Notes under the pieces: generated by a model
What the model saw: only the letters and a program-made list of their open reading frames with translations
What the model was told of the DNA's origin: nothing
The model's database searches: none
Shown here: positions 1,913-43,569 of the stretch, in pieces
Numbering within the stretch: the stretch's first letter is position 1
How the letters are laid out: each line of letters opens with the position of its first letter
Assembly: GCA_964403585.1 (NCBI GenBank)
Contig: CAYOFQ010000001.1
Coordinates: 520,630-584,629, forward strand
DNA from: an uncultured Gammaproteobacteria bacterium
GTDB taxonomy: Bacteria; Patescibacteriota; Microgenomatia; JALYQM01
Reading direction: 5' to 3'
Length of the DNA stretch: 64,000 bases
Position numbers and translations under genes: made by a program

Positions 1913-2761
1913 ATGCATGCACACCGGCCACATAAAGTACACAAACTCATAACGTGGATAAAGAAAAACACTTCGCTGGTAAGTGGTTTAGCAGCAGTGC
2001 TTATTACTCTCCTTTTTGTCTCCTCAGTAGTGCTCCTGGGGCAGTCGGGTCAACTTACCTCATTAAGTCGTATTGGTGCTGTTGATCAGACCATAACCTA
2101 TCAAGAAATCACCTGTACCAGCGTGCTCGTTAAATCCAATGTTGGCTTGCGCGGAAATCTCGTATTGAATGTAATGAATAGCGGCGAGCGAGTAGTCAGC
2201 CAGTCTGCCGCCTTTCAGTTACCTTTTGCCAATGAAACGACCTTAGTAAGATTCCCACAACTTCCTGCTAATGGTGTGTATACTTTTTTCATCACTCAGA
2301 ACACACAAGTTATCGGACAAAATGTTAGCTTCAATATGATGTGTCCAGCTCCGCAAGTATATTTTAACAACCATACCTGCAACTATGTGGATTTAGTAAG
2401 CATCCAGCCACTCCAAGGGCAATTCCAAGTTGCAGTATTATTCGGGTCCGGAGAGGAAGGAGAACCGTCTCAAGTCGTACGGCTCTCACAACCATTTAGT
2501 TTTTCTGCGCAAAATACGGCACGGGCAAGCTTTACTCAGCCGTTGAATAGCAATGATGATTTTATCTATGTTCTGTATCGCAATGGCGTTTTCATTGCCT
2601 ACGGATCCGGAGGCGGAATAAAGTCACTAGAATGTTATGTGCCTCCAACCCCCACACCAACTCCTAATCTTCCTCCTGCAGGGACAGTGGATTCGATTAC
2701 CGACGGACTTATCAGAGGGTGGGCACGTGATCCCAATACAACAGCACCTATTCAGGTCTAG
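1913..2761 (+). CDS. Membrane-anchored extracellular protein, N-terminal segment of a gene interrupted by an in-frame TAG. It carries an N-terminal TM helix and a 4-Cys domain paralogous to 3884-4436.
   Basis: ATG at 1913, followed by a hydrophobic anchor (LVSGLAAVLITLLFVSSVVLL). Strong similarity to the N-terminal half of the 3698-5941 product (TCxS, CPAP, HTCN, PLNSNDDF, LECY, then a PTPTP linker). The frame is terminated by TAG at 2759-2761. Confidence 0.55.
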   Translation: MHAHRPHKVHKLITWIKKNTSLVSGLAAVLITLLFVSSVVLLGQSGQLTSLSRIGAVDQTITYQEITCTSVLVKSNVGLRGNLVLNVMNSGERVVSQSAAFQLPFANETTLVRFPQLPANGVYTFFITQNTQVIGQNVSFNMMCPAPQVYFNNHTCNYVDLVSIQPLQGQFQVAVLFGSGEEGEPSQVVRLSQPFSFSAQNTARASFTQPLNSNDDFIYVLYRNGVFIAYGSGGGIKSLECYVPPTPTPTPNLPPAGTVDSITDGLIRGWARDPNTTAPIQV

Positions 2762-2830
2762 TTATTTATCGATGGGGCACCAGACATTCTTTTCCCTAAC
2801 CGGTTTATCGGCTCAGTCGCAGCAAATCAA

Positions 2831-3610
2831 TTGCGCTCTGATCTTCCATTTGCGGATAAAAATCACGGATTTACCTTTCAACTATCCCCACTGCTCTTTC
2901 AAAATACCGGAACCCATCGACTTTTCGCGTATGGTATAGACAGCGCTGGTGGCGCAAACCCGCAGCTGTCCGGGAGTCCATACACTTTTACCTGGGTTAG
3001 ACCGAGTCCGTCCCCAAGCCCGTCCCTTTCACCATCCCCAAGTCCAACACCGACACCTACTCCATCACCATCACCAACACCAACCAGATCACCATCGCCT
3101 ACGCCCACCCCCACACCGGTGGCCTATGGCTGTGAGAATCAGAGCTTCTATAGCGTCAACTTATCATATCCGCACACCAAAGCCTGCTTCTTTGTCCCAA
3201 ATCTGATGTATGATCAGGAAAATCGGTTTAATATTTTCCATATCCCTACTAACTATTCTGTACGGTTCCCATTTGTGCGAACAGAAAATGTAGGCATCAA
3301 AGAGGATCGAAATCTGCAGTGGTCAATAACCTCTCAAGTAGCAGGTCAGGTTTTTGTTATGTACCGTAAAATTCCCGGCCAGGTTCCACCTGGTTGGATT
3401 ACAGATAAATATCAGAAAATGACCACTGATGACTGGTCAAATTTAAATCAATATGTGTTACGCAAAAACGAACTTGGATTGATCGGTGTATACGATATCT
3501 ACCGAACAACGATGAACGGCCCAAACACGACAGTGGAATTTGGCCCCGCATCAGATAATAATGTAACGGCATTCTCAATGTACTTAGTCGGAATCAGTCC
3601 CGGTTTATAA
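2831..3610 (+). CDS. Same reading frame as 1913-2761, continuing past the TAG. Encodes the tail of a GWxxDPD..VHIYxD-type domain, a PS/PT-rich linker, and a C-terminal 'YRKIPGQ' domain.
   Basis: Same frame as the upstream ORF. The track start at 2831 is a TTG. RSDLPFADKNHGFTF aligns with RSDLTAEKANHAFNW of the 3698-5941 product. The C-terminal 145 aa match the N-terminal domains of the 12253-14022 and 42121-43569 products. Confidence 0.45.
   Translation: MRSDLPFADKNHGFTFQLSPLLFQNTGTHRLFAYGIDSAGGANPQLSGSPYTFTWVRPSPSPSPSLSPSPSPTPTPTPSPSPTPTRSPSPTPTPTPVAYGCENQSFYSVNLSYPHTKACFFVPNLMYDQENRFNIFHIPTNYSVRFPFVRTENVGIKEDRNLQWSITSQVAGQVFVMYRKIPGQVPPGWITDKYQKMTTDDWSNLNQYVLRKNELGLIGVYDIYRTTMNGPNTTVEFGPASDNNVTAFSMYLVGISPGL
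3001..3120. repeat. Low-complexity tandem tract encoding a Pro/Ser/Thr linker (SPSPSPTPTPTP...)
   Basis: The ccg/tcc/aca/cca codon periodicity is visible directly in the sequence. It generates spurious His-rich and Gly/Asp-rich ORFs in the other frames. Confidence 0.8.
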
Positions 3611-3697
3611 CTCCCTCTTGCGCAACATATGCTTTTGTCCCTACCTTAATAGTAAGGAAATATTTACTCATTATTAAGAAAGGAAATAAAGAACTCT

Positions 3698-5941
3698 ATG
3701 AAAAGTTTCCATACTCATAGAGACAAAGGGTTTCTTGGGTACTTGCGCAAGAATAAAGCACTTGCAAGCGGGCTTGCTGCCGTGGTACTGACAATACTCT
3801 TTGTTTCTACCATTATAATTTCAGGCAAATCCACACAACTAGGGATGCTTTCTCAAACTAACGCTGCAAATCCTGTAGTAAAATTTCAGGACGCTACCTG
3901 TTCCTCGGCAATTGTCAGTACCGACCAGGTCGTAAGTGGCTCGTATACTGTCAATGTCCTTAATGGGAGCGGGGATTTGGTCGGACAATCAGCGGCGTTC
4001 AACTTCACCGGAGAGACTCATTATGTAACATTCCCGTCTCTAGGATCGAGCGATTATTTTAGTTTTAACCTTAAAAAAAATGGGGTTACGTTTGGAACAC
4101 ATTCTCCTAACGAAAACTATCGCTTTAATTTAGTATGTCCAGCACCAACGGTATGGTTCTCGCAACACACCTGTAATTCTGTACAGGTGGCAACTTCTCA
4201 GGCATTATCAGGAACGTATCAGGTAGGAGTTTCTTTTTCAAATGGTGGAGAACGGGATAGGCCGACAGAGTTTATTAATCGATCAAGAAACTTTACTTTT
4301 AATGGACAAAATGCAACGGCTACATTTGAACGTCCTCTTAACAGCAATGACGACTTTTATTATACATTGCTTAAAAATGACGTAATGGTCGGAAGAATCG
4401 GATTCGGCAGCCCGAAAGCACTTGAGTGCTATGCCGATCCAACCCCGACTCCGACACCGCCACCATCCTGGAAAGTTAACATGCAAGCCGTATGTCCAAA
4501 CGGCAACGCACCGACCAGAATGTCCGGAAGCGTTGGAACTCGCTGGAGACCATATCCGTACACCGTTAACGGACAAGAAGTAGGCTACACCGATGGTGGA
4601 GCAGCTAACGCTACTGGGTTATCAGTTATTACAGCACCGGTAATAAATAGAGATCTGAACTGGTTTGCCTATATGTTCTATCGCTATCCAAACGGAGGTG
4701 CTTTAGTTCAAACATTACCGACAATCGGCGCAATGCCAAACAGTCATTTTGAATCACATGACTACAATCCAGACAATTTAAGGTATCAGATTACCTGGGA
4801 TGAACAAACTCCCGTTAATACCTATACGGTTAAATTTAAGTTACCAAACGATGCTCCCGAATGTGCCGGTACTACCACTCAAGGTCAACGCCCGGTTGGT
4901 AATGTCGACGGAGTATATAATGATTCCAGCTTAGGCTATGTCGTCTCAGGATGGTCTTTGGATCCTGACTCCACTTCAACCAAAATTAAAGTACATATCT
5001 ATGCTGATAAAGAATTCTCAGCATCCGATACCAGTGGATACGCCGGTGAAGTGGTTGCCGATGATCCGCGTTCAGACTTAACCGCTGAAAAAGCCAACCA
5101 TGCGTTTAATTGGGTAGTACCCGCTAGGTTTAAAGATGGTAATGCCCATACGTTCTATGTATACCCAATCGATTACCCCTCAAACACCGGATATGACATT
5201 GGTGGAGGAAAGGCCTTTAGTATAGGGAAAGTAACCTATACATTCCCAACAGCATCCGCAAGCCCAAGCGGCTCTCCGGTAGCCTGTTCCAATAAAGACA
5301 TCATGATGGTGATGGACACTTCAGGAAGTATGTCCGGAAGTAAGATTCGCGATGCTAAAGCAGGAGTCAAAGCACTCGTCGCAAAATTACCATCTAATGC
5401 CAACGCTCGCGCAGGATTAGTAGGATTCGGAACTCATGCCTACATTGCTGCAGACATGACGCAAACAATGAGTAAAGTAACTGAGGCGTCAGATAAATTA
5501 CGAGCCTCCGGTGGAACCAACCTTGCCGAAGGTATTACCACAGGCTCGAGTAAAATTGCCGCGGATAATCGAACCCACGTCATGCTGATCATGACCGACG
5601 GTATCGCCAACCTTCCACGCCCGAGAGAAATCGGTCCAAACGAACCCGCTGCATATGCATCAGCACAGGCAGCTGCAACCGAAGCAGTTGCTGCAGAGGT
5701 AGCACGCGGACTACGAACAGTATTCTATACAGTTGGATTAGGCAGTAAGAGTCAACTGAATTCAACCTGGCTCGATGCTCTTGCCCGTGGCACGGGTGGA
5801 AAGAGTGTCTATGTTTCTAAATCAACAGAATTAGATAACAAATTCACTGAACTGGTAACCGAAATGTGTAAGGAAACACCTGCATCAGGTAACCCTGAAT
5901 TCCTTAATAACTTACGGGGATTGACTGCTCCAAGACAGTAA
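3698..5941 (+). CDS. Membrane-anchored extracellular multidomain protein: 4-Cys domain, PT linker, GWxxDPD..VHIYxD domain, C-terminal von Willebrand factor A domain
   Basis: N-terminal TM helix. Paralogy to the 1913-3610 gene. VWA MIDAS motif DTSGSMSGS, with downstream MLIMTDGIAN motifs. Stop TAA. Confidence 0.8.
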   Translation: MKSFHTHRDKGFLGYLRKNKALASGLAAVVLTILFVSTIIISGKSTQLGMLSQTNAANPVVKFQDATCSSAIVSTDQVVSGSYTVNVLNGSGDLVGQSAAFNFTGETHYVTFPSLGSSDYFSFNLKKNGVTFGTHSPNENYRFNLVCPAPTVWFSQHTCNSVQVATSQALSGTYQVGVSFSNGGERDRPTEFINRSRNFTFNGQNATATFERPLNSNDDFYYTLLKNDVMVGRIGFGSPKALECYADPTPTPTPPPSWKVNMQAVCPNGNAPTRMSGSVGTRWRPYPYTVNGQEVGYTDGGAANATGLSVITAPVINRDLNWFAYMFYRYPNGGALVQTLPTIGAMPNSHFESHDYNPDNLRYQITWDEQTPVNTYTVKFKLPNDAPECAGTTTQGQRPVGNVDGVYNDSSLGYVVSGWSLDPDSTSTKIKVHIYADKEFSASDTSGYAGEVVADDPRSDLTAEKANHAFNWVVPARFKDGNAHTFYVYPIDYPSNTGYDIGGGKAFSIGKVTYTFPTASASPSGSPVACSNKDIMMVMDTSGSMSGSKIRDAKAGVKALVAKLPSNANARAGLVGFGTHAYIAADMTQTMSKVTEASDKLRASGGTNLAEGITTGSSKIAADNRTHVMLIMTDGIANLPRPREIGPNEPAAYASAQAAATEAVAAEVARGLRTVFYTVGLGSKSQLNSTWLDALARGTGGKSVYVSKSTELDNKFTELVTEMCKETPASGNPEFLNNLRGLTAPRQ

Positions 5942-5963
5942 TACGCATTTCACGCAGTAACTA

Positions 5964-5997
5964 AAAAGAGCTCTAGCAATAGAGCTCTTTTTTTCTT
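5964..5997. terminator. Bidirectional rho-independent terminator between convergent genes
   Basis: Palindrome aaaaagagctctagcaatagagctcttttttt: a GC-containing stem, an A-run on one side and a T-run on the other. Confidence 0.6.
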
Positions 5998-12252: not shown

Positions 12253-14022
12253 CTATTGGTGTGTCCAGTCTGTCCAGGACATATTTTTTCCACCGCCACC
12301 GGTGGCTTTCGTCGGATAATGCTGACCGTAGGCTTTATTGATTACCCAAGTAACCCAGGGCTCGTTATTCATCCATTGTGAGCCGAACTGTTGAGATAAA
12401 TAGTACTGGTAATCCAGTGTCCGCAGGGGAGCGTTATTCTGTATGAAGTAGGCAGGATATCCCGCACGGGATAATAATTCTGCCTGCATAATATATCCTT
12501 GCATACCTTCCCACGGGTATTGAGTATATCCCGGAGGCCAGCTAAACGCGCCGCCTCTTCCTTGGTCATTTACAATTGCACCATCAATCTTATGGCCATT
12601 TTTAATTGATCCCGCCGGGTTCACAGCAACCTGTTTGGACGAATCGGTAGTATATGACCACGAAATACCATTGTCATTCAGGTTTGGACGGCAGCTCGGA
12701 CACTTGGTCACATCACCGGAATACCGCTGATAGGTTTGCCAAGCTTTTTCAACTTCGGCACTATCCCCGAGATAGAGCGCTGCAGCAATCCGAGCACCTC
12801 CGGCGAGCGCGTCCCCGTTACTTGAACCATTATCATGAGATTCACTTAAGTTATATTCGGGAACACTTCCGTTGTTCCGGCAATTCTTTTTATACCTGAT
12901 ATAGTTAACATAATTTGCCCAGCGGGTACCTTCATTGCCGTCCGTACCAGCTCGAAGATTGATAATATCTGCGGCAATAATATAACTCGGCAAATTTCGG
13001 GATAGAGCCAGCGAGCGGGCTTTGCTCGGCGTAGTTTCACAGTCTGCGTCCCGGTTGGCATCAGTACCGATTGCTGACAAAATCGCCGCAACTGCCTTCG
13101 CACGATATGCCTGGTCTTTAGTTTTTGCCGCAACTAAGGCAACTGCCAAAGTGCTCTGATCATGCTGTGAATTCTGGTCGGCCAAATTAGCGCTTCCAAT
13201 CGAACTGTCGGCCCTTGATTTAAGATCATTCCAGGCTTGACCACTTGCCGGCAACCGGTCAATATCTGCTTGAGAAATCCAAATTCCGGTTTTTACCTGG
13301 CCTGAAGGGAGGGGAGTTTGAGCTGTCGGCACGACTGTCGGCAATTGCGTCGTAGAGCGGGGAGAAACACCAACTATATACATCGAATACGCTTCTCCGG
13401 TTTCCGAATACGGGGCTCCAAAGGTTACAACTGATGCACTGGAAACAGCCTTTTGGTAAATATGATACACACCAATCAACCCCTGTTCATTTTTTCGGAG
13501 CATAAACGGTTGTAAATTGGCGTATGAATCACTGGTAACTCGGGTATATGAGGAAAGCCAAGCCGGAGCCGGTTGACCGGGAATTTTACGATAGAATACA
13601 TAGACATCCGCAGGTTGGGTGATGGTCACATTCCAGGAGAGCAGATGATTCGCTTTGAGTGACACATTTTCGGTACGGATAAAAGCTACCTGTTTCGCCT
13701 GCAGCGCCGTTGGTGTGCTGAAAAAAGTAAACCGGTTATCTCCGAGATACATCACTGCTCCAGGCGTTAAACAGCCGACTTGAGTCTCATATGGGGACTG
13801 AGAAGCAAAAGATATCTGTCCAATGGTATTAAGTGTTGCTTGGGTACAGGGTATGGTTTGGGCAGAGGAATTATCCTGGGTGCGAATAGTAAAAAGGCTG
13901 TTATTCTTAACTATACCCACCACCAGTAATGTGAGGACGAACGTCATTGAGCCAATCTTTAATAATGTTTGTAACGCTTCGGTACTACGCATAAAAATCT
14001 TCTGATTATTATTAAGTACCAA
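12253..14022 (-). CDS. Secreted/anchored protein: N-terminal 'YRKIPGQ' domain, PT linker, large C-terminal domain of unknown function (possibly a carbohydrate-active enzyme)
   Basis: Signal/anchor MTFVLTLLVVGIV. FYRKIPGQPAPAW..FMLRKNEQGLIGVYHIY matches the 3176-3610 and 42924-43359 domains. The true start may be the internal Met (MRSTEAL..) near 13992. Confidence 0.7.
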   Translation of the reverse strand: MVLNNNQKIFMRSTEALQTLLKIGSMTFVLTLLVVGIVKNNSLFTIRTQDNSSAQTIPCTQATLNTIGQISFASQSPYETQVGCLTPGAVMYLGDNRFTFFSTPTALQAKQVAFIRTENVSLKANHLLSWNVTITQPADVYVFYRKIPGQPAPAWLSSYTRVTSDSYANLQPFMLRKNEQGLIGVYHIYQKAVSSASVVTFGAPYSETGEAYSMYIVGVSPRSTTQLPTVVPTAQTPLPSGQVKTGIWISQADIDRLPASGQAWNDLKSRADSSIGSANLADQNSQHDQSTLAVALVAAKTKDQAYRAKAVAAILSAIGTDANRDADCETTPSKARSLALSRNLPSYIIAADIINLRAGTDGNEGTRWANYVNYIRYKKNCRNNGSVPEYNLSESHDNGSSNGDALAGGARIAAALYLGDSAEVEKAWQTYQRYSGDVTKCPSCRPNLNDNGISWSYTTDSSKQVAVNPAGSIKNGHKIDGAIVNDQGRGGAFSWPPGYTQYPWEGMQGYIMQAELLSRAGYPAYFIQNNAPLRTLDYQYYLSQQFGSQWMNNEPWVTWVINKAYGQHYPTKATGGGGKNMSWTDWTHQ

Positions 14023-14113: not shown

Positions 14114-16585
14114 ATGGTGCCATCTTTTTTTCGTACAAATTCAGGGAGAACGAAATTCGCTTTTGCCATAGCGGTACTCTTGTTTGTCGGAGTATTTATC
14201 TACAATGGTAAGCTGTCTCCGGTCCAAAGTACCAGCTGCGGAGCCAACTGCTCCTTAAAAGAAATCGGTACTATCGACGGTCTGGGTAATTTTTCCACTA
14301 CGCCAACACTAATAAAGGACCAGCCGTATTGGGTTCGACTCACTATCAACGGCCAGGACAATCTGGTTGCTACACCTGGTCCAACTGCCACACCTGCGCC
14401 AAAGGGTGTAGACACAATGATGTACATTGACCTTTCTTCTAGTATGTTAGAAAATTATCCGAAATATAATCCGGATAACGGGACGGATGTTATCATGTAT
14501 CAGGCAGCTCAGACTGCTTTGAATAAATATATTGACTCTTCAGATCAGGCCAATGATTATCTTGGGTTTGGTACCTTTACCTGGTGTATTAATTACAAAA
14601 ATTCCGCCACACCCGTTTGGTGGTCTTACGACGACTTTAATCGGGGTGATGGAAAAATGGTCGGATTCAGTGCCGTACATATTCCGTTGCGCCCCATGGC
14701 CAATAACCCCAACTATTATAAAAACATTATTAACAGTATTACCTTCAACGGTGATGATGCCGATTTTTGTGCCGGAACCGGTCTTTCGCATGAACCAACC
14801 TCCAATGGTGGACCATACAATACGACAGGAGAGTTTCACGGAGGCACCTCAATTGGTGGGGCAATCACCGGAGCAAACACCTTCCTTACACCAATACTTA
14901 ATGATCCAAAAGCGAAGCGCAAAGACGGTACCAGCTATCGGGACAGTGTCAAAAGTAAGAATCTTTCTACCTATAACCGTAATATGGGACCATATGCCCG
15001 CCAGTACACAACCGGGGCGGCTATTCCCAAGTATATTATTCTTGCCACCGACGGCGGAGAAGGGGTACCGCCGTTAGTTACTGATGAGGATATCGATCAC
15101 AATACCCGCACTATAGTACAGAACGCGAAGCAACATGGTGTAAAAATATTTATGGTTATCACCAGAAGACAAAGCAGCCTATCTGCTAATGGAATCGCCA
15201 GAATTAACTATATCACCGGTACTACCGGAGGTAAGGCCTATTACGGCAATTCTGAGCAGGAATTAGTTGCTAATTTTTCCAACATCCGCACCGATATCGT
15301 TGAGGATTCTAATGGTGGTGCTATTCCTTCCGGCACACCGGTTGCCAAAACCGACATCACCGTTACCGAAAAGGTCAATGCTTCGTATTTCAAAATCGAC
15401 GAACCCACGCATAGTACTCCGATTACCTTTAAAGTCGGGCAGCCTGGCTCACCTGAAACAGATATCACTAATTTGATGTGTAAAGACAGCAACTCGGATA
15501 CCGTGCCGGACTGTGTCAGCAATAAAAAGTACAACGCTTCGGGCAATCTGATCGGCTATGATGTAACGCTCGATCCAATCGGTTTCGGCCAAACCCGTTA
15601 CATTTATTTCAGAGTAACCCCAACTAAGTCTACCGGAGGACTCTCCGTTCCGGTCGATGAAGACCCGACCAGTGTCATCGACTATGAGGATATTCCCGCT
15701 ACCGTCAATTTGGATAACGTTAGTGTCGTTATCACCGAGGCCAGTCTGTTCTTTCAGGTATTCGGTGGAGGCGATGTCTATTCGGCATCAAATGATGTGA
15801 CCAAATCTATTTATTCATTCCTTCCCGGATCAACAGACCTCTTCAGTTCGGTGGCTAATGTTGTTTTTCATCGGGGAGGGGCAACCTATGGTAACGGAAA
15901 AGTTAATTCGAAAAACAGGGAAGTTGACCCGTATGCAATTACCTATGATCCGGTACAAATGAGCTATAACACTTTATATAACGAATACAGCAAGTTAATG
16001 CCGGCAAGTAATATTAAGAACATTTCCGGTCTTTCCGATTTCACTACCTCCGGCTACTACATGGATAACACCAGTACCAGCAATGGTAAATTTGAGATCA
16101 AAGGAGCAGGCTGGACCGGACAAAATTTGCAGGGCAAAAAAATCGTCATGTTTGTTCCCGGCAATCTATACATCAGTACTAATTTTTCCGTCGAGGATGA
16201 CGGAAATAGTTTACTTGTGTTTATTGTTAAAGGAGATGTCGGTATCGATCCCGACGTAACCAATGTTCAGGGTGTCTATATTGTCGACGGGAAAATAGAT
16301 ACTGCCTGTAAATCGTCATCCTCCTTCAACGCCGCCAACAGTTGTTCGCCGGATGCCGGAGCGAACGGTACCGAAAAACAATTAACGCTGGAAGGCATGT
16401 ATATAACTAATTCCATCGATCCGCTGACCAAAGGATATAACGGGTTAGCGGGAGGATTCCTTTTGGATCGCAAGCCTACAACTGCTATTCCCGGTGAACG
16501 GTTTATATACCGTCCCGACTTCATCATGAGCACTTCGTTAAGTATTGGCCGCAAAAGCTATACCTGGATCGAAAACACACAATAA
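14114..16585 (+). CDS. Large membrane-anchored extracellular protein with a VWA domain (tandem paralog 1)
   Basis: N-terminal TM helix. MIDAS-like DLSSSM, with ATDGGEG later. 823 aa. Co-linear similarity to the 16643-18967 product. Confidence 0.8.
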   Translation: MVPSFFRTNSGRTKFAFAIAVLLFVGVFIYNGKLSPVQSTSCGANCSLKEIGTIDGLGNFSTTPTLIKDQPYWVRLTINGQDNLVATPGPTATPAPKGVDTMMYIDLSSSMLENYPKYNPDNGTDVIMYQAAQTALNKYIDSSDQANDYLGFGTFTWCINYKNSATPVWWSYDDFNRGDGKMVGFSAVHIPLRPMANNPNYYKNIINSITFNGDDADFCAGTGLSHEPTSNGGPYNTTGEFHGGTSIGGAITGANTFLTPILNDPKAKRKDGTSYRDSVKSKNLSTYNRNMGPYARQYTTGAAIPKYIILATDGGEGVPPLVTDEDIDHNTRTIVQNAKQHGVKIFMVITRRQSSLSANGIARINYITGTTGGKAYYGNSEQELVANFSNIRTDIVEDSNGGAIPSGTPVAKTDITVTEKVNASYFKIDEPTHSTPITFKVGQPGSPETDITNLMCKDSNSDTVPDCVSNKKYNASGNLIGYDVTLDPIGFGQTRYIYFRVTPTKSTGGLSVPVDEDPTSVIDYEDIPATVNLDNVSVVITEASLFFQVFGGGDVYSASNDVTKSIYSFLPGSTDLFSSVANVVFHRGGATYGNGKVNSKNREVDPYAITYDPVQMSYNTLYNEYSKLMPASNIKNISGLSDFTTSGYYMDNTSTSNGKFEIKGAGWTGQNLQGKKIVMFVPGNLYISTNFSVEDDGNSLLVFIVKGDVGIDPDVTNVQGVYIVDGKIDTACKSSSSFNAANSCSPDAGANGTEKQLTLEGMYITNSIDPLTKGYNGLAGGFLLDRKPTTAIPGERFIYRPDFIMSTSLSIGRKSYTWIENTQ

Positions 16586-16642: not shown

Positions 16643-18967
16643 ATGTATAAAAAAATTTTCCTCTCCCTGAATGCGCTCTTGTTCCTCACCATCTTTGTCT
16701 ATTTAGGTAAAACAACTTTCGTGAAGGGAGCGAACTGTGCATCTAACTGTACGACCAAAGAAATTGGGACGTTAGGAAAAGATGCATTCGGCCGGGATGT
16801 ACTTAATCCGGTTGATCCGGTCGCCGTCAATAAATCTTACTGGGTAAAGCTTTCGGTGAAAGGCCAGGACACAACTACTTCCACGATCCCAACTGCCTTA
16901 CCGTCACCTACTACGACTACTATCTCATACGGAAGCGACATTATGATGATGTTGGACACCACTACCAGTATGTATGACAGTATTCCGGTAAATGCTGATG
17001 GTAGCGGCGGAACCGTACTTACCTATGAGGCTGTTCGTGATGGTATGGTGCGAATGGTTAATCTTTCCAGTGATCCGCTGGACTATTTAGGCTTTGGGTC
17101 ATTCCGCCTCTGTCGCGGGTATACTTCTACTACCACACCTGTTTGGTGGGTATACGAAGACTGGAACCGGGCTGATGATGGTTACCGTGGTACAAGCGCC
17201 ATCCACCTGCCACTACAGCCTTTAAATGGGCGAAAAACACTTTTTACCAATACCATTAACAGCATCACTATTTTAAATGACAGCGGTAAAAACAATAACT
17301 TCTGCCGTAGTTCCGGTGTTGACTCCAACGGCTTTCATGGCGGTACCAGTGTCGGTGCCGCGATTACTGCTGCCGATACACAGTTAACTCCGATTCTCAA
17401 CGACTCCAAAGCAGTACGCCGGGACGGCTCCAGTTATCGTGACTCAACAAGAGTCGGAATCAATGGCTATAACGATGGTCCCCGTACTCGATTCGGAGTT
17501 CCGAAGTACATCGTATTAGCCACCGATGGCGGAGAAGGCGCCCCACCACTTATCGATGACCCTGATATCGATAAAAACCTGCGGAGTGCCTTGCAGACTG
17601 CAGCCCACTATGAAATAAAAATTTATGGCATCGCCTTTAGCCGGCCCGGTAATAACGATTATCAGAAATTGGAAAGAATAACTACCACTACCGGAGGAAA
17701 AATCTTTGCGGGTAATTCAAGGCAGCAAATTCTCCAGTCCGTGGAAGCGATCCGTAACGAAATAACCAAGGAATCGCAGGGCACTCCACCGCCATCCCCA
17801 TCACCTTCATTTTCAACTACCGGTTCAACTGCCACCATTAATGAACGAATCAATAGTTCTAATTTTTCAATTTCAACAATGAATAACACAACATTCAAAT
17901 TGATTAAGCGTAATACGGACGGGAGTGTCACTAATATCACGTCTACTTGCGGCTCCGGTTTAGCCGCCTGCTTAAGTAATGCCTCCAGCGCCGGATTTGA
18001 TTTAAAGCTGCCGCAAATCGGCTCGAATGAAGAAATATATGTCTACTTTATGGTCACCCCGACCACCGCCAGCGATCCCGGGCAAAAAGTACCGGTCGAC
18101 AAGGATCCTGACAGTATCATCAAATACTCAAACGGGCATCAGGAGAATATCCGTAACGTTCAAGTAGGCGTTGTTGCCAATAAGCCGTATTTTGAATCCC
18201 AGAATGGCGGCGATATCCACACCCGCGGCGGGCTGCTCGTTGATATGCCGGATACGTATAAGTTTATCCGGGGTACCTACCCGGGTATTTTAAGTTACGG
18301 CGGCAGTGCTGTGGTAAGGCCCAACAATAATCAATTGAGCAGTAAAAACTGGAAAATCGGCGGCGGCTCTCCGGGATACCAGGTAAACGCGCAGAAATAC
18401 ACCTATCAGGCACTCCTCGCAACTATCAAATCAAAGAAAACTATTACCAGTCTATCTCAGATAACCGGATCCGGTTTTTACGTAGTAAACGGAGATCTTA
18501 CTATTAATAGTACCAATAAGCTGCCTAACTTATTGACTTCAACTCAGCAAATTGTGCTATTTGTCAATGGAAATGTGTATATTCGAACAGCTATTCCTCT
18601 TTTCGGCAATCCGAATAATAAATCGTCTCTGGCTATCATCTCTTCTAAAAACATCGGCATTGATCCGGCAGTCAGTGACCCCGGGGGCACCATCGCCGGG
18701 ATCTATATCGCTGACGGCGTCATCGATACAGCCTGTTCGGGCACGTTCTCCTTTACCCAGTGTACTCCCGGAGCACCAACCTTGCATAACTCATCACTGA
18801 CCCTGGAAGGAATGTTCCTGGCTGCCTCGGGTTTCAATCTGGACCGGTACGGAACTCCGGACGTTCCGGCCGCCGGCGAGAAATTTATCTATCGTCCGGA
18901 ATTGTTATTAACCGCTGCACCACAACTTGGGTCGCTTTCATCGGTATGGCAGGAGATATCGCCTTAA
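16643..18967 (+). CDS. Large membrane-anchored extracellular protein with a VWA domain (tandem paralog 2)
   Basis: N-terminal TM helix. MIDAS-like DTTTSM, with ATDGGEG later. 774 aa. Paralog of the 14114-16585 product. Confidence 0.8.
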   Translation: MYKKIFLSLNALLFLTIFVYLGKTTFVKGANCASNCTTKEIGTLGKDAFGRDVLNPVDPVAVNKSYWVKLSVKGQDTTTSTIPTALPSPTTTTISYGSDIMMMLDTTTSMYDSIPVNADGSGGTVLTYEAVRDGMVRMVNLSSDPLDYLGFGSFRLCRGYTSTTTPVWWVYEDWNRADDGYRGTSAIHLPLQPLNGRKTLFTNTINSITILNDSGKNNNFCRSSGVDSNGFHGGTSVGAAITAADTQLTPILNDSKAVRRDGSSYRDSTRVGINGYNDGPRTRFGVPKYIVLATDGGEGAPPLIDDPDIDKNLRSALQTAAHYEIKIYGIAFSRPGNNDYQKLERITTTTGGKIFAGNSRQQILQSVEAIRNEITKESQGTPPPSPSPSFSTTGSTATINERINSSNFSISTMNNTTFKLIKRNTDGSVTNITSTCGSGLAACLSNASSAGFDLKLPQIGSNEEIYVYFMVTPTTASDPGQKVPVDKDPDSIIKYSNGHQENIRNVQVGVVANKPYFESQNGGDIHTRGGLLVDMPDTYKFIRGTYPGILSYGGSAVVRPNNNQLSSKNWKIGGGSPGYQVNAQKYTYQALLATIKSKKTITSLSQITGSGFYVVNGDLTINSTNKLPNLLTSTQQIVLFVNGNVYIRTAIPLFGNPNNKSSLAIISSKNIGIDPAVSDPGGTIAGIYIADGVIDTACSGTFSFTQCTPGAPTLHNSSLTLEGMFLAASGFNLDRYGTPDVPAAGEKFIYRPELLLTAAPQLGSLSSVWQEISP

Positions 18968-41369: not shown

Positions 41370-42131
41370 ATGTACGATCAGGTCTTTATAGAAAACAAGC
41401 AAACTAAAGTCGGCATTAATCCGCAGGGAGGGTATGTAACCTCCTGGAAAATTAATGACACGGATATCCTCTATCAGGGTAGCTCAATTCGTCGTACCGG
41501 CATTCCAATCCTTTTTCCCTACTATGGAAAAGCACATCAGACGCGCATGCATGGATTTGGGCGGGACTGCCAATGGGAAATCAGTACTCATGATCAGGCA
41601 TCGGTGACAATGGAACTGACACCGGACAATCTTACCGAAGAAGACCGCCGTGATTATCCATTCGAATTTTCCGCTCAAATTACTGTTAACCTTCTTAGTG
41701 ATTCCGAACTACTGTATACACTGGAAGTTACAAATAATGATTCCAAAGATCTGCCTATTTCACCGGGGATTCACCCGTATTGGTCGATTCCGCATCAGGA
41801 AAAGCCGGCCATTTCGATTAACGGAATTAATGGATTCAGCGCCGCATCAGTTGATTGGAACAATACCCCGCCTGATGATCCGTATGATTTTTCGGGTCAA
41901 GCCACCGTCAGTTTAGGAAATAAGACACTTGGTATCGAAGAGCTTTCATTACCACGAGTCGTAAAATTTTTACAGCTCTGGTCTCAAACTCCGGTTCGGG
42001 ATCCTGATTTTAATTTCCTTTGTGTCGAACCAATTTGCGGGCTGAATTACGGCATTGAAGAATCACCGTTATTAGTAAAACAAGGTGAAACGTGGCAAAT
42101 GAAGGTTAGGTTTTCTATTACTAGTGTGTAA
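41370..42131 (+). CDS. Aldose 1-epimerase family protein (mutarotase-like)
   Basis: 253 aa. Galactose-mutarotase-like beta-sandwich motifs (GIPILFPY..G..HGF.R.). Confidence 0.65.
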   Translation: MYDQVFIENKQTKVGINPQGGYVTSWKINDTDILYQGSSIRRTGIPILFPYYGKAHQTRMHGFGRDCQWEISTHDQASVTMELTPDNLTEEDRRDYPFEFSAQITVNLLSDSELLYTLEVTNNDSKDLPISPGIHPYWSIPHQEKPAISINGINGFSAASVDWNNTPPDDPYDFSGQATVSLGNKTLGIEELSLPRVVKFLQLWSQTPVRDPDFNFLCVEPICGLNYGIEESPLLVKQGETWQMKVRFSITSV

Positions 42132-43569
42132 CAACAGCATTGTATACCACTACTTCACCATAGTTATTCGCAGAACATAATCCGGACGCTTCAGTACTAC
42201 AATTGGATTGGGTATACGCTCCGGTTTTAAAATATGCACCCGAATACGCTCGTGTCAGTGTATAGGCCGGAGTAGCAGCTCCATTGTAATAAATCATCGT
42301 CTTCCCGCCACTCGCTACAAAGCGTACCGTAAATCGCTTTCCCAAAGTATAGTTTGAATCCAAAGTATATACATGCTGGTCTCCTCCCGGGGGATTTGTA
42401 CCAACATTGACATATAAATTCGGCAGTTCAAGACGAATAACAATCACATCATCATCGGCATCATGAATCTGTCCGGCCACTACGTGTTTTTTAGTCTGGG
42501 GTACGGCAGTAATTGCCTGATCTAATGTCATCGTGTGCGTACCACTGGTATTATTCCAGGCTGCATTAAAGGTTCCGTTACTGACCATCTCCCGCAATTC
42601 CGAGCGGGGATATTTTGATCCGGACGTATGCGCTCCATTAACTGGTGCTCTGAAAATTACTCCGTTACGCGAGGAATTAACTTTAAACCATTCATCTGTA
42701 TATGTCGCCAGCGCGGGTTGCTTAATTTCTGTTGGACTACTCCCGTTTAGGGGACTCGGCAGTGTAATTTTCCAATTCGTTAGATTTAATACCTGCGCAG
42801 GCAGGTTCCCTGTTCCGCCGGTTGGTATCGGGGTAGAAGTTGGTGTAGGTGAAGGAGATCTCGATGGATTCGTTGTTGCGGTTGGTGACGGTGTTACCGT
42901 TGCTGAAGGTGAAGGAGTTATTGTTGCCGACGAACTGGGAAAAACAGTATTCCCTTTAATTGCCAAAATATACATTGAATATGCGGTGACAGTACTATCG
43001 GATGCCGGCCCAAAATTTACAACACCTGCAGAATTGGAGTTCCTCTTCCATATGTCATATACACCAATCAGCCCCTGCTCATTCTTACGGAGTACAAATT
43101 GATTCAAATTACTGAAATCATCAGTAGTCATCTTAGTATAGTGAGACTGAATCCATGAAGGGACGCTTTGACCGGGTATCTTGCGATAATAAATATACAG
43201 ATCATGAGAACTCTGAAAATTAATAGACCAGGATAAGGTGGGTAGATCTTTTAATCCGGCATTTTCAGTTTGTATAAATGTAAGATTGCTCGGCATCGAT
43301 CCCGGAACCACAAAAAAAGTATAGCGCGAATCACCCGCGTACATTTGTGTGCCGGCTTGAACACACTGTTCAGTAAACGTTTTCCCGGGCGGGGGTTGTA
43401 TGGCATATCCGGTCGAACAGCTGACAGCGTACTGCAAATCAACGGAATTAATTTTAAGCAAACTTCGGGCCTGAGTAAAAACAACAAGGCTCAAAACAAA
43501 TACAGTGAGAATTACTATCAGATGGCTCCGCATACGCTCAGTATGACAGTTGTTAGTTCTCGCGGTCAA
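42121..43569 (-). CDS. Secreted protein: N-terminal 'YRKIPGQ' domain, PT/PS linker, C-terminal PL7-like (alginate lyase 2 family) polysaccharide lyase domain
   Basis: Signal peptide. PL7 signature trio RSELRE, QIH and YFKTGAYTQ. N-terminal domain IYYRKIPGQSVPSW..FVLRKNEQGLIGVYDIW. Confidence 0.8.
   Translation of the reverse strand: MTARTNNCHTERMRSHLIVILTVFVLSLVVFTQARSLLKINSVDLQYAVSCSTGYAIQPPPGKTFTEQCVQAGTQMYAGDSRYTFFVVPGSMPSNLTFIQTENAGLKDLPTLSWSINFQSSHDLYIYYRKIPGQSVPSWIQSHYTKMTTDDFSNLNQFVLRKNEQGLIGVYDIWKRNSNSAGVVNFGPASDSTVTAYSMYILAIKGNTVFPSSSATITPSPSATVTPSPTATTNPSRSPSPTPTSTPIPTGGTGNLPAQVLNLTNWKITLPSPLNGSSPTEIKQPALATYTDEWFKVNSSRNGVIFRAPVNGAHTSGSKYPRSELREMVSNGTFNAAWNNTSGTHTMTLDQAITAVPQTKKHVVAGQIHDADDDVIVIRLELPNLYVNVGTNPPGGDQHVYTLDSNYTLGKRFTVRFVASGGKTMIYYNGAATPAYTLTRAYSGAYFKTGAYTQSNCSTEASGLCSANNYGEVVVYNAVVTH

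Follow-up and report, generated by a model that had tools for sequence, protein, structure and literature searches.

Spacers of the FN3/Ig-like kind (FN3, PF00041), as in fibronectin, titin, Bap or SiiE, are all-beta sandwiches of ~90-100 aa which follow each other in tandem and in variable number between an anchor and functional heads. Repetitive beta-sandwich stalks are also formed by prealbumin-like/CnaB modules (SpaA_4, PF24514; SdrD_B, PF17210; CarboxypepD_reg, PF13620). An N-terminal anchor combined with a VWA domain is found in BatA/BatB and in the families TIGR03436 (acidobacterial VWFA) and TIGR03788 (sortase targets). In Gram-positive pilus tip adhesins, a VWA head is carried on a stalk of beta-sandwich modules, and the A1 and A3 domains of von Willebrand factor possess a terminal disulfide.

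The locus described here lies in a window of 64,000 nucleotides (the whole stretch of DNA that was analysed) and resembles each of these systems in part. It consists of two adjacent genes of the same strand, called below gene 1 (1913..2761, +; in its present form 282 aa and a TAG) and gene 2 (3698..5941, +; 747 aa). The locus as a whole is probably best explained as a pair of duplicated, membrane-anchored genes with disulfide-stapled Ig/FN3-like stalk modules, in which gene 1 exchanged its head and was then hit by a nonsense mutation.

Gene 1 and gene 2 are old tandem paralogues

In a preliminary description of this DNA, the segments 2102-2639 of gene 1 and 3884-4436 of gene 2 were reported to be collinear. 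Composition-adjusted BLASTP aligned them end to end (179 and 184 aa) with 75 identical residues out of 185 (41%), 60% positives and an E-value of 2e-46, over 185 collinear columns from which the linkers were left out. The four cysteines are invariant between both genes and each segment is closed by the same linker, announced as PTPTP and reading PTPTPTP. Both proteins contain the blocks TC(T/S)S, CPAP, HTCN, PLNSNDDF and LECY, but the sixth proposed block, SQSAAF, is exact in gene 1 only; since gene 2 reads GQSAAF, the common block is QSAAF. The likeness had been placed after the transmembrane anchor. The segment is indeed conserved, but the similarity begins at residue 1 and includes the cytoplasmic tail and the transmembrane segment (residues 1-243, 39% identity, E 3e-56). 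A second common domain was found downstream (gene 1 residues 248-374 and gene 2 residues 392-527, 30% identity, E 6e-12), and no third copy of the segment was detected by tblastn in the whole window.

Because Ser, Thr, Asn and Gly abound in both proteins, which also carry low-complexity PT linkers, a compositional or chance resemblance, or a duplication artefact of the assembly, had to be considered. This explanation has a negligible probability and is already refuted: the E-value of 2e-46 is composition-adjusted and comes from linker-free columns, orthologues are present in other assemblies, and the two proteins share only 41% identity, which indicates that the copies are old and distinct. 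At the DNA level, the longest stretch common to both genes is 40 nt at 73% identity; in the absence of any long repeat, both the assembly artefact and a recent DNA-level duplication were rejected.

The head-to-tail arrangement with a gap of 87 bp was confirmed, the TAA at 3608-3610 being followed by the ATG of gene 2 at 3698. No terminator-like hairpin was found between the genes; one is located 3' of gene 2 (5963..5992, +), where a stem of 13 pairs with a T run behind it matches the terminator consensus only.

Relatives were collected by exhaustive HMMER searching of 1.84 billion proteins, which was used because the gene 2 domain had retrieved nothing by word-index searching, not even the 78%-identical P0002. 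The family was found to be tiny and restricted to gene 1, gene 2 and two other VWA proteins, P0002 and P0003, and no curated family was matched. When the family alignment was run against JGI metagenome contigs, no relatives emerged, and a scan of the GTDB species genomes revealed one related MAG contig only. In this related genome, a single VWA gene lies between topA and atpC, with TopA, AtpC, AtpD and AtpA 85-94% identical to their counterparts. The tandem duplication put forward previously is thus supported by both the adjacent same-strand paralogues and the single gene at the syntenic site of the relative, and gene 1 is probably a lineage-specific paralogue. The difference between the two genomes may stem either from a gain in the present lineage or from the loss of a copy in the other one. 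Gene 1 is 41% identical to gene 2 and 38% to P0002. Among the homologues, the N-terminal tail and the transmembrane helix are unusually well conserved, beyond what a simple anchor requires, an observation which counts against a mere stalk.

The shared segment is a tandem of two-cysteine modules

The segment had been described as one novel four-cysteine domain of ~180 aa. It consists instead of two tandem copies of a ~93-aa module with two cysteines. The second half of the gene 1 segment aligns to the first half of the gene 2 segment (BLASTP, E 2e-5), and the profiles of the first (type A) and second (type B) modules were aligned by hhalign with 98.8% probability (E 7.5e-17, 91 columns). Ten modules from the four proteins align collinearly, with one glycine and both cysteines invariant (10/10 for the cysteines). 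In gene 1, the type A module covers 2084..2350 (+; aa 58-146, Cys68 and Cys144) and the type B module 2351..2644 (+; aa 147-244, Cys156 and Cys241); in gene 2, they cover 3866..4144 (+; aa 57-149, Cys68 and Cys147) and 4145..4438 (+; aa 150-247, Cys159 and Cys244), respectively. Both type B modules contain the PLNSNDDF loop. Gene 1, gene 2 and P0002 have two copies of the module and P0003 has four, a variation typical of spacer modules.

The module was modelled with AlphaFold2 (AF2), with confident results. The two-module model, to which the gene 1 module assignment refers, shows two sandwiches built of beta strands only (pLDDT 82), and module 1 of gene 2 alone gave a pLDDT of 93.3 and a pTM of 0.83. 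In the single-module model, one cysteine is found just after the first strand and the other just after the last one. Given an FN3-type topology, both would be brought to the same end of the sandwich, and one intramodule disulfide per module is plausible, as are the two disulfides proposed previously. Classical FN3 domains usually do not carry such a pair, in which the present modules differ from them.

The modules are predicted to adopt an ordinary beta-sandwich fold

An Ig-like and a lectin fold had both been envisaged, and structure prediction yielded an FN3/Ig-like beta-sandwich. When the module-pair model was compared with the PDB by Foldseek, the top matches were FN3 tandems and the Bap adhesin (E 4e-5). 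With the single module, the best matches were FN3 domains, which also make up most of the best 50 PDB fold matches, but these are weak (E 3e-3 or weaker, TM 0.45-0.58). The assignment to an ordinary FN3/Ig-like sandwich is therefore a prediction at the level of the fold, with TM scores not exceeding 0.58; this weakness of the structural matches counts against an FN3-like stalk.

The sequences, by comparison, do not resemble known domains, as had been suggested: the segment has no match in Pfam, NCBIfam or among PDB sequences. The fn3 family PF00041 gave no match with the full-length proteins (E up to 1) or with the ten isolated modules (E up to 10), and the Big/Ig families were not matched by the modules even at E up to 10. 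With its predicted fold, the module pair belongs to a familiar kind, and the family is novel in sequence only.

The prealbumin-like/SpaA/CnaB/CarboxypepD_reg stalks are also distinct. Three further proteins retrieved by exhaustive HMMER (P0004, P0005 and P0006) were examined as distant relatives and rejected after Pfam typing and hhalign, their scores being sums of short partial matches over many repeats. P0004 and P0006 are built of prealbumin-like/CnaB-type repeats. The apparent CnaB-type matches add up short partial alignments over 5-22 repeats, and in hhalign the module profile reached a probability of only 6.9% with a protein of SpaA_4 repeats and of 0.2% with one of CarboxypepD_reg repeats; by this profile comparison the modules, which have no Pfam match, are thus not homologous to these stalks.

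The loop P[LI]NS[ND]D[DY]F is strictly kept in the last module of each of the four proteins despite an overall identity of only 29-41%, suggesting more than a passive spacer and counting against the stalk. It is conceivable, although rather unlikely, that the two modules together serve in binding and not as a spacer, for example as a beta-sandwich that recognises carbohydrates or depends on Ca2+, with this Asn/Asp-rich loop as the site. The fold matches include a porphyran-binding CBM (8wae, TM 0.52, E 9e-3) and the Ca2+-binding adhesins SiiE and Bap, and the genome encodes alginate-lyase-like surface proteins made of related orphan modules. On the other hand, FN3 spacer domains predominate among the fold matches and score at least as well as the CBM. 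The Pfam and PDB sequence searches with the modules gave no match to a CBM family, the sole sequence candidate being the PDB entry 2vzp at a sub-threshold E-value of 0.05, which does not surpass the FN3 matches either. Moreover, the module copy number differs among homologues and dedicated heads are already present, gene 2 having its VWA domain and gene 1 the lyase-associated module. The pair is most likely a disulfide-stapled stalk that would hold functional heads off the membrane.

Gene 2 carries a VWA head

Gene 2 encodes, in this order, a transmembrane anchor, the two stalk modules, a PT linker, a Cys-bracketed insert of 135 aa and the GW..DP domain, and it ends with a VWA domain. The putative signal-anchor helix (3761..3826, +; aa 22-43, Kyte-Doolittle maximum 2.46) follows a tail with 6 K/R and 1 D/E. 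The insert (4466..4870, +; aa 257-391, Cys266 and Cys389) is missing in gene 1 and in the orthologue P0002, and the GW..DP domain extends over 4895..5245 (+; aa 400-516). Neither of these two regions, nor the C-terminal module of gene 1, matched anything in the PDB or Pfam, and two large-database searches with these orphan modules retrieved a handful of unnamed proteins only.

The C-terminal domain (5285..5869, +; aa 530-724) belongs to the VWA family, with PF13519 at E 2.5e-14 (54.3 bits, cut-off 27) and PF00092 at E 1.2e-12 (48.8 bits, cut-off 23.8), and a complete MIDAS motif (DTSGS, GGT, TDG) can be read in its sequence. This membership concerns the C-terminus of gene 2 only and does not extend to the shared N-terminal segment. 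Gene 2, P0002 and P0003 thus have the anchor and C-terminal MIDAS-containing VWA domain of the N-terminally anchored VWA proteins, but all NCBIfam scores are far under the cut-offs (TIGR03788, 35 bits with a cut-off of 552; BatA, 24 bits with a cut-off of 380). The locus also differs from these and from sortase-target proteins in that no sortase signal was seen and in that the intervening modules belong to orphan families. The VWA domain is flanked by Cys530 and Cys724, like A1 and A3 of human von Willebrand factor, a likeness which is an analogy of design only. Every other Cys-containing module of gene 2 is bracketed in the same manner, all its cysteines lying at module boundaries (68/147, 159/244, 266/389 and 530/724).

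Gene 1 is interrupted by an in-frame stop codon

The 282-aa frame of gene 1 comprises a basic tail, the transmembrane anchor and the two stalk modules, followed by a PT linker and by the first 27 aa of the GW..DP domain. It is identical to the database protein P0001 (282 aa), and an identical sequence is found in two other assemblies. Its candidate signal-anchor helix (1976..2041, +; aa 22-43) was located by the Kyte-Doolittle scale, the 19-residue maximum being 2.49 and the next best segment 1.04, and the preceding tail contains 5 K/R and 0 D/E. By the positive-inside rule, this single hydrophobic helix after a positive N-terminus would leave the segment outside the cell, which supports the extracellular location initially assigned to it. 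A class III signal of the prepilin type was considered for the conserved N-terminus and rejected by eye, as SG is followed by LAAVV and the Gly-Phe/x-x-x-Glu pattern is lacking.

The gene starting at 1913 contains an in-frame TAG (2759..2761, +), overlooked in the preliminary description, which falls inside the GW..DP domain (2678..2998, +; aa 256-362, homologous to gene 2 aa 400-516) and splits it. Downstream are a Pro/Ser/Thr-rich linker (2999..3118, +; aa 363-402) and a C-terminal module of ~160 aa with the final TAA (3119..3610, +). By tblastn, this module is shared with two ORFs of the window, 12253..14022 (-) with 49% identity (E 5e-38) and 42121..43569 (-) with 41% identity (E 7e-30), the latter carrying a PL7 alginate lyase domain (PF08787). 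No known family was found for it in the PDB and Pfam searches.

The frame is open for 283 codons beyond the TAG and two recognisable domains are encoded there without frameshift (30% identity to gene 2; 41-49% to the paralogous modules). Gene 1 might accordingly be read as a working anchored protein of 565 aa, the TAG being read through, recoded, or a variant of the population or assembly, but this is improbable. A recent nonsense mutation equally predicts an intact downstream sequence, and the same TAG base sequence occurs in the NCBI genome and in the independent assemblies of runs SRR16481186 and SRR16481187. The literature, searched for the run and assembly accessions, yielded nothing. TAG is the stop codon of 10 of the 45 window ORFs checked, including atpG, and since TAG, TAA and TGA all terminate long, well-conserved ORFs of the window, an alternative genetic code or TAG recoding is not supported. 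No tRNA, rRNA, Rfam or recoding element was found within the window. The gene 1 paralogue has probably been inactivated or truncated in recent times.

A model of the locus and its meaning

In the model that we favour, the module pair, placed directly after the N-terminal signal-anchor helix, would form a membrane-proximal stalk, its rigid Ig/FN3-like units with one intramodule disulfide each projecting ligand-binding heads through the envelope. In gene 2, the modules would lead through Pro/Thr linkers and other modules to a VWA head with a complete MIDAS motif, and in gene 1 through linkers to the module common to alginate-lyase-like proteins. Gene 1 would go back to a duplication that covered the VWA gene over its 5' two thirds, from the tail and the transmembrane helix through both modules and the PT linker to the GW..DP domain; its VWA head would have been exchanged for a different module, and the nonsense codon would have been acquired later.

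A bolder scheme, which we regard as a long shot, would make the Cys-bracketed pair a recognition unit together with the GW..DP, insert and lyase-associated orphan modules, the amber codon of gene 1 acting as an on/off switch. The PLNSNDDF loop and the conserved tail and transmembrane helix would then belong to a lineage-specific, shuffling surface toolkit, by which an uncultured bacterium with a 1.6-Mb genome might attach to a partner cell or to a polysaccharide matrix.

The result is of modest interest; it opens no new mechanism and settles no open question. If the stalk model is true, one small orphan sequence family would join the stalk modules of the Ig/FN3-like type, already a very large class among bacterial surface proteins. 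The locus would provide a clean evolutionary example of tandem duplication, of module copies going from 2 to 4, and of the replacement of a VWA head by a lyase-associated one, as well as of the insertion of an extra module and of early pseudogenisation. It would also be of use in annotating the surface proteins of a poorly known uncultured lineage, nearly all of whose modules lack annotation.

Similarity between gene 1 and gene 2

Gene 1 (frame opened by the ATG at 1913) and gene 2 (ORF 3698..5941, 747 aa) are both located on the + strand, head-to-tail, and are indeed separated by a gap of 87 bp (3611-3697). Once translated, segments 2102-2639 of gene 1 and 3884-4436 of gene 2 correspond to 179 and 184 aa, and their pairwise alignment is statistically significant and runs from end to end, with 75 identical positions out of 185 (41%), 60% positives and an E-value of 2e-46, excluding chance or artefact as the source of the likeness. 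The blocks TC(T/S)S, QSAAF, CPAP, HTCN, PLNSNDDF and LECY and the four cysteines noted in the preliminary description are kept in both segments, and both end in a PTPTPTP linker. The similarity had been placed after the transmembrane anchor; it is present there, but it begins earlier, the basic tail and the hydrophobic helix being conserved too, and homology covers residues 1-243 (E 3e-56). Downstream, the two proteins have in common a domain with a G-W-x-x-D-P signature (residues 248-374 of gene 1 and 392-527 of gene 2; 30% identity, E 6e-12). No third copy of the segment was detected by tblastn across the 64-kb window.

The shared segment is a tandem repeat of a rare module

The segment had been proposed to be one domain of about 180 aa. 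It is instead an internal tandem repeat of two modules: the second half of the gene 1 segment aligns with the first half of that of gene 2 (E 2e-5), and ten units of about 93 aa, taken from four proteins, can be aligned collinearly, both cysteines and one glycine being invariant. Comparison by hhalign of a profile of six first-type units with a profile of four last-type units gave a probability of 98.8% and an E-value of 7.5e-17 over 91 columns.

As a sequence family the module is new, the segment being without match in Pfam, NCBIfam and PDB sequence searches, and it is extremely rare. When 1.84 billion representative proteins, among which gene 2 is represented through its orthologue P0002, were searched exhaustively with an HMMER profile, three convincing matches emerged, each in a protein cluster with a single member: P0001, which is gene 1 itself, P0002 from a related MAG (656 aa as called) and a further homologue, P0003 (751 aa). 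P0002 contains two module copies and P0003 four, and both end in a C-terminal VWA domain. The search also listed three long repeat proteins (P0004, P0005 and P0006); of these, P0004 and P0006, whose repeats are of the SpaA_4 / CarboxypepD_reg type, were ruled out as homologues by direct profile comparison (6.9% and 0.2%). No new relative came from scanning GTDB species genomes and JGI metagenome contigs.

The novelty does not extend to the fold class, which structure prediction and Foldseek indicate to be a very familiar one. The AlphaFold2 model of the module pair, obtained from an alignment of two sequences only, is all-beta with two sandwiches (mean pLDDT 82), and that of a single module, obtained with the ten-module alignment, reached a pLDDT of 93.3 and a pTM of 0.83. 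Against the PDB, the pair matched FN3 tandem fragments of tenascin, fibronectin and titin, and Bap, a staphylococcal adhesin, at E 4e-5 and weaker. Matches of the single module, at E 3e-3 and weaker and with 10-20% identity, were to FN3 domains and, in some cases, to GH2 sandwich domains, plus a single CBM. The module is thus predicted to be an Ig/FN3-like beta-sandwich without close structural relative, resembling FN3 domains in fold class but matching them weakly (TM 0.45-0.58).

Membrane anchor and domain organization

Each of the two proteins has one strongly hydrophobic segment (aa 22-43) behind a tail with 5-6 K/R, and no second candidate helix was found in either. Since this segment is the only one, the positive-inside rule makes an N-in / C-out signal anchor the most likely topology. 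The tail and helix (1913-2041 and 3698-3826) are unusually conserved in gene 1, gene 2, P0002 and P0003, with the pattern KNxxLxSG[LI]AAxxLx[IL][LV]FVS[ST]...G[KQ]SxxL, in proteins otherwise 29-41% identical, which hints at a sequence-specific role of the anchor, e.g. in sorting or partner binding. Residues 1-44 of P0002 (positions 8001-8132 of L001) correspond to nothing in genes 1 and 2 or in P0003, and the homologous Met (MKSLHSHRDN) is residue 45; the start of P0002 has probably been called too early.

Past the anchor, gene 2 encodes two modules, a PT linker, a 135-aa insert, the GW..DP domain and a VWA domain with complete MIDAS residues. P0002 presents the same order minus the insert. 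Gene 1 encodes two modules, a PT linker, the GW..DP domain, interrupted by a TAG codon, a 40-aa P/S/T linker and a C-terminal module of about 160 aa; its order as far as the GW..DP domain looks ancestral, being common to P0002. The Cys-bracketed insert of gene 2 (4466-4870, + strand) is missing from P0002, a 74%-identical orthologue, and from gene 1, and is therefore a recent insertion of a module belonging to no known family. All eight cysteines of gene 2 lie at module boundaries (68/147, 159/244, 266/389 and 530/724), suggesting one disulfide staple per module.

Gene 1 is interrupted by a stop codon

The in-frame TAG of gene 1 (2759-2761) falls within the GW..DP domain, and the product in public collections (P0001) is accordingly of 282 aa. 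The same TAG with identical flanking DNA is found in the assemblies of two separate sequencing runs (SRR16481186 and SRR16481187) and in a 1.57-Mb NCBI contig. Stop codon usage among 45 ORFs of the window is strongly skewed (TAA 33, TAG 10, TGA 2), and no tRNA or Rfam RNA element was found in the 64 kb. Read-through of the TAG is conceivable but unsupported, and we consider it very improbable. Given the recurrence of the codon in the assemblies, its use as terminator by 10 of the 45 ORFs and the lack of tRNA or RNA element in the window, a nonsense mutation is the simplest reading; it is probably recent, as 283 codons remain open past the TAG and still encode two recognizable domains.

Gene order in a related MAG

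A contig of the related MAG encodes TopA, AtpC, AtpD and AtpA with 85-94% identity to their counterparts in the window; along it, dprA is followed by two small genes, topA, a single VWA gene (P0002), atpC and the remaining atp operon. The window shows this order plus gene 1 between topA and gene 2; judged by this extra position, gene 1 is a lineage-specific paralogue. The paralogy of the two genes and the single VWA gene at the related site support the tandem duplication put forward in the preliminary description. No DNA-level repeat was found between gene 1 and gene 2, and the module pair of gene 1 is 41% identical to that of gene 2, 38% to that of P0002 and 29% to that of P0003. An old duplication followed by loss from the relative fits, as does a younger copy diverging fast under relaxed selection. 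The only terminator-like hairpin lies downstream of gene 2.

Related modules and other surface proteins in the window

The C-terminal module of gene 1 (3119-3607, + strand), of a type about 145-160 aa long, recurs on the - strand as the N-terminal part of two secreted proteins: at 13360-13791 in ORF 12253..14022 (41% identity to the gene 1 copy) and at 42958-43374 in ORF 42121..43569 (49%), the latter carrying a PL7 alginate lyase domain. The motifs YRKIPGQ and LRKNExGLIGVY are invariant, and the same genome holds at least two more copies elsewhere (P0009 and P0011). This lyase-associated module may be a carbohydrate-binding module. Neither it, nor the GW..DP domain, nor the gene 2 insert matched a known family, and all three have very few relatives anywhere.

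The 589-aa protein of 12253-14022 (-), which shares its module with the PL7 lyase, has a C-terminal region of about 350 aa without Pfam match that may be an uncharacterised polysaccharide-active domain. ORFs 14114-16585 (+) and 16643-18967 (+), which encode anchored surface proteins of 823 and 774 aa, are another two paralogues arranged head-to-tail (35% identity, E 2e-135); the proteins have a common CxxNCxxKEIGT start, a weak VWA-like region and otherwise no match to known families. The related MAG has an 826-aa gene past its atp operon.

Proposed role of the modules

In the FN3-type topology, the residues following strands A and G share one end of the sandwich, so cysteine pairing is presumed to be intramodular, each module being stapled by one disulfide; for successive modules, by contrast, the closing Cys of the first and the opening Cys of the second would be a full strand apart. 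The main rival to a structural role is that the module pair itself binds Ca2+ or a glycan via its conserved PLNSNDDF loop, which we regard as unlikely. The best-supported reading, and in our opinion a reasonably probable one, is that of a stalk, in view of the fold class, the position of the modules directly after the anchor, their tandem arrangement in variable copy number, the linkers that come next and the fact that the heads are domains of their own. The modules would be rigid, disulfide-stapled units projecting the ligand-binding heads of these proteins away from the membrane.
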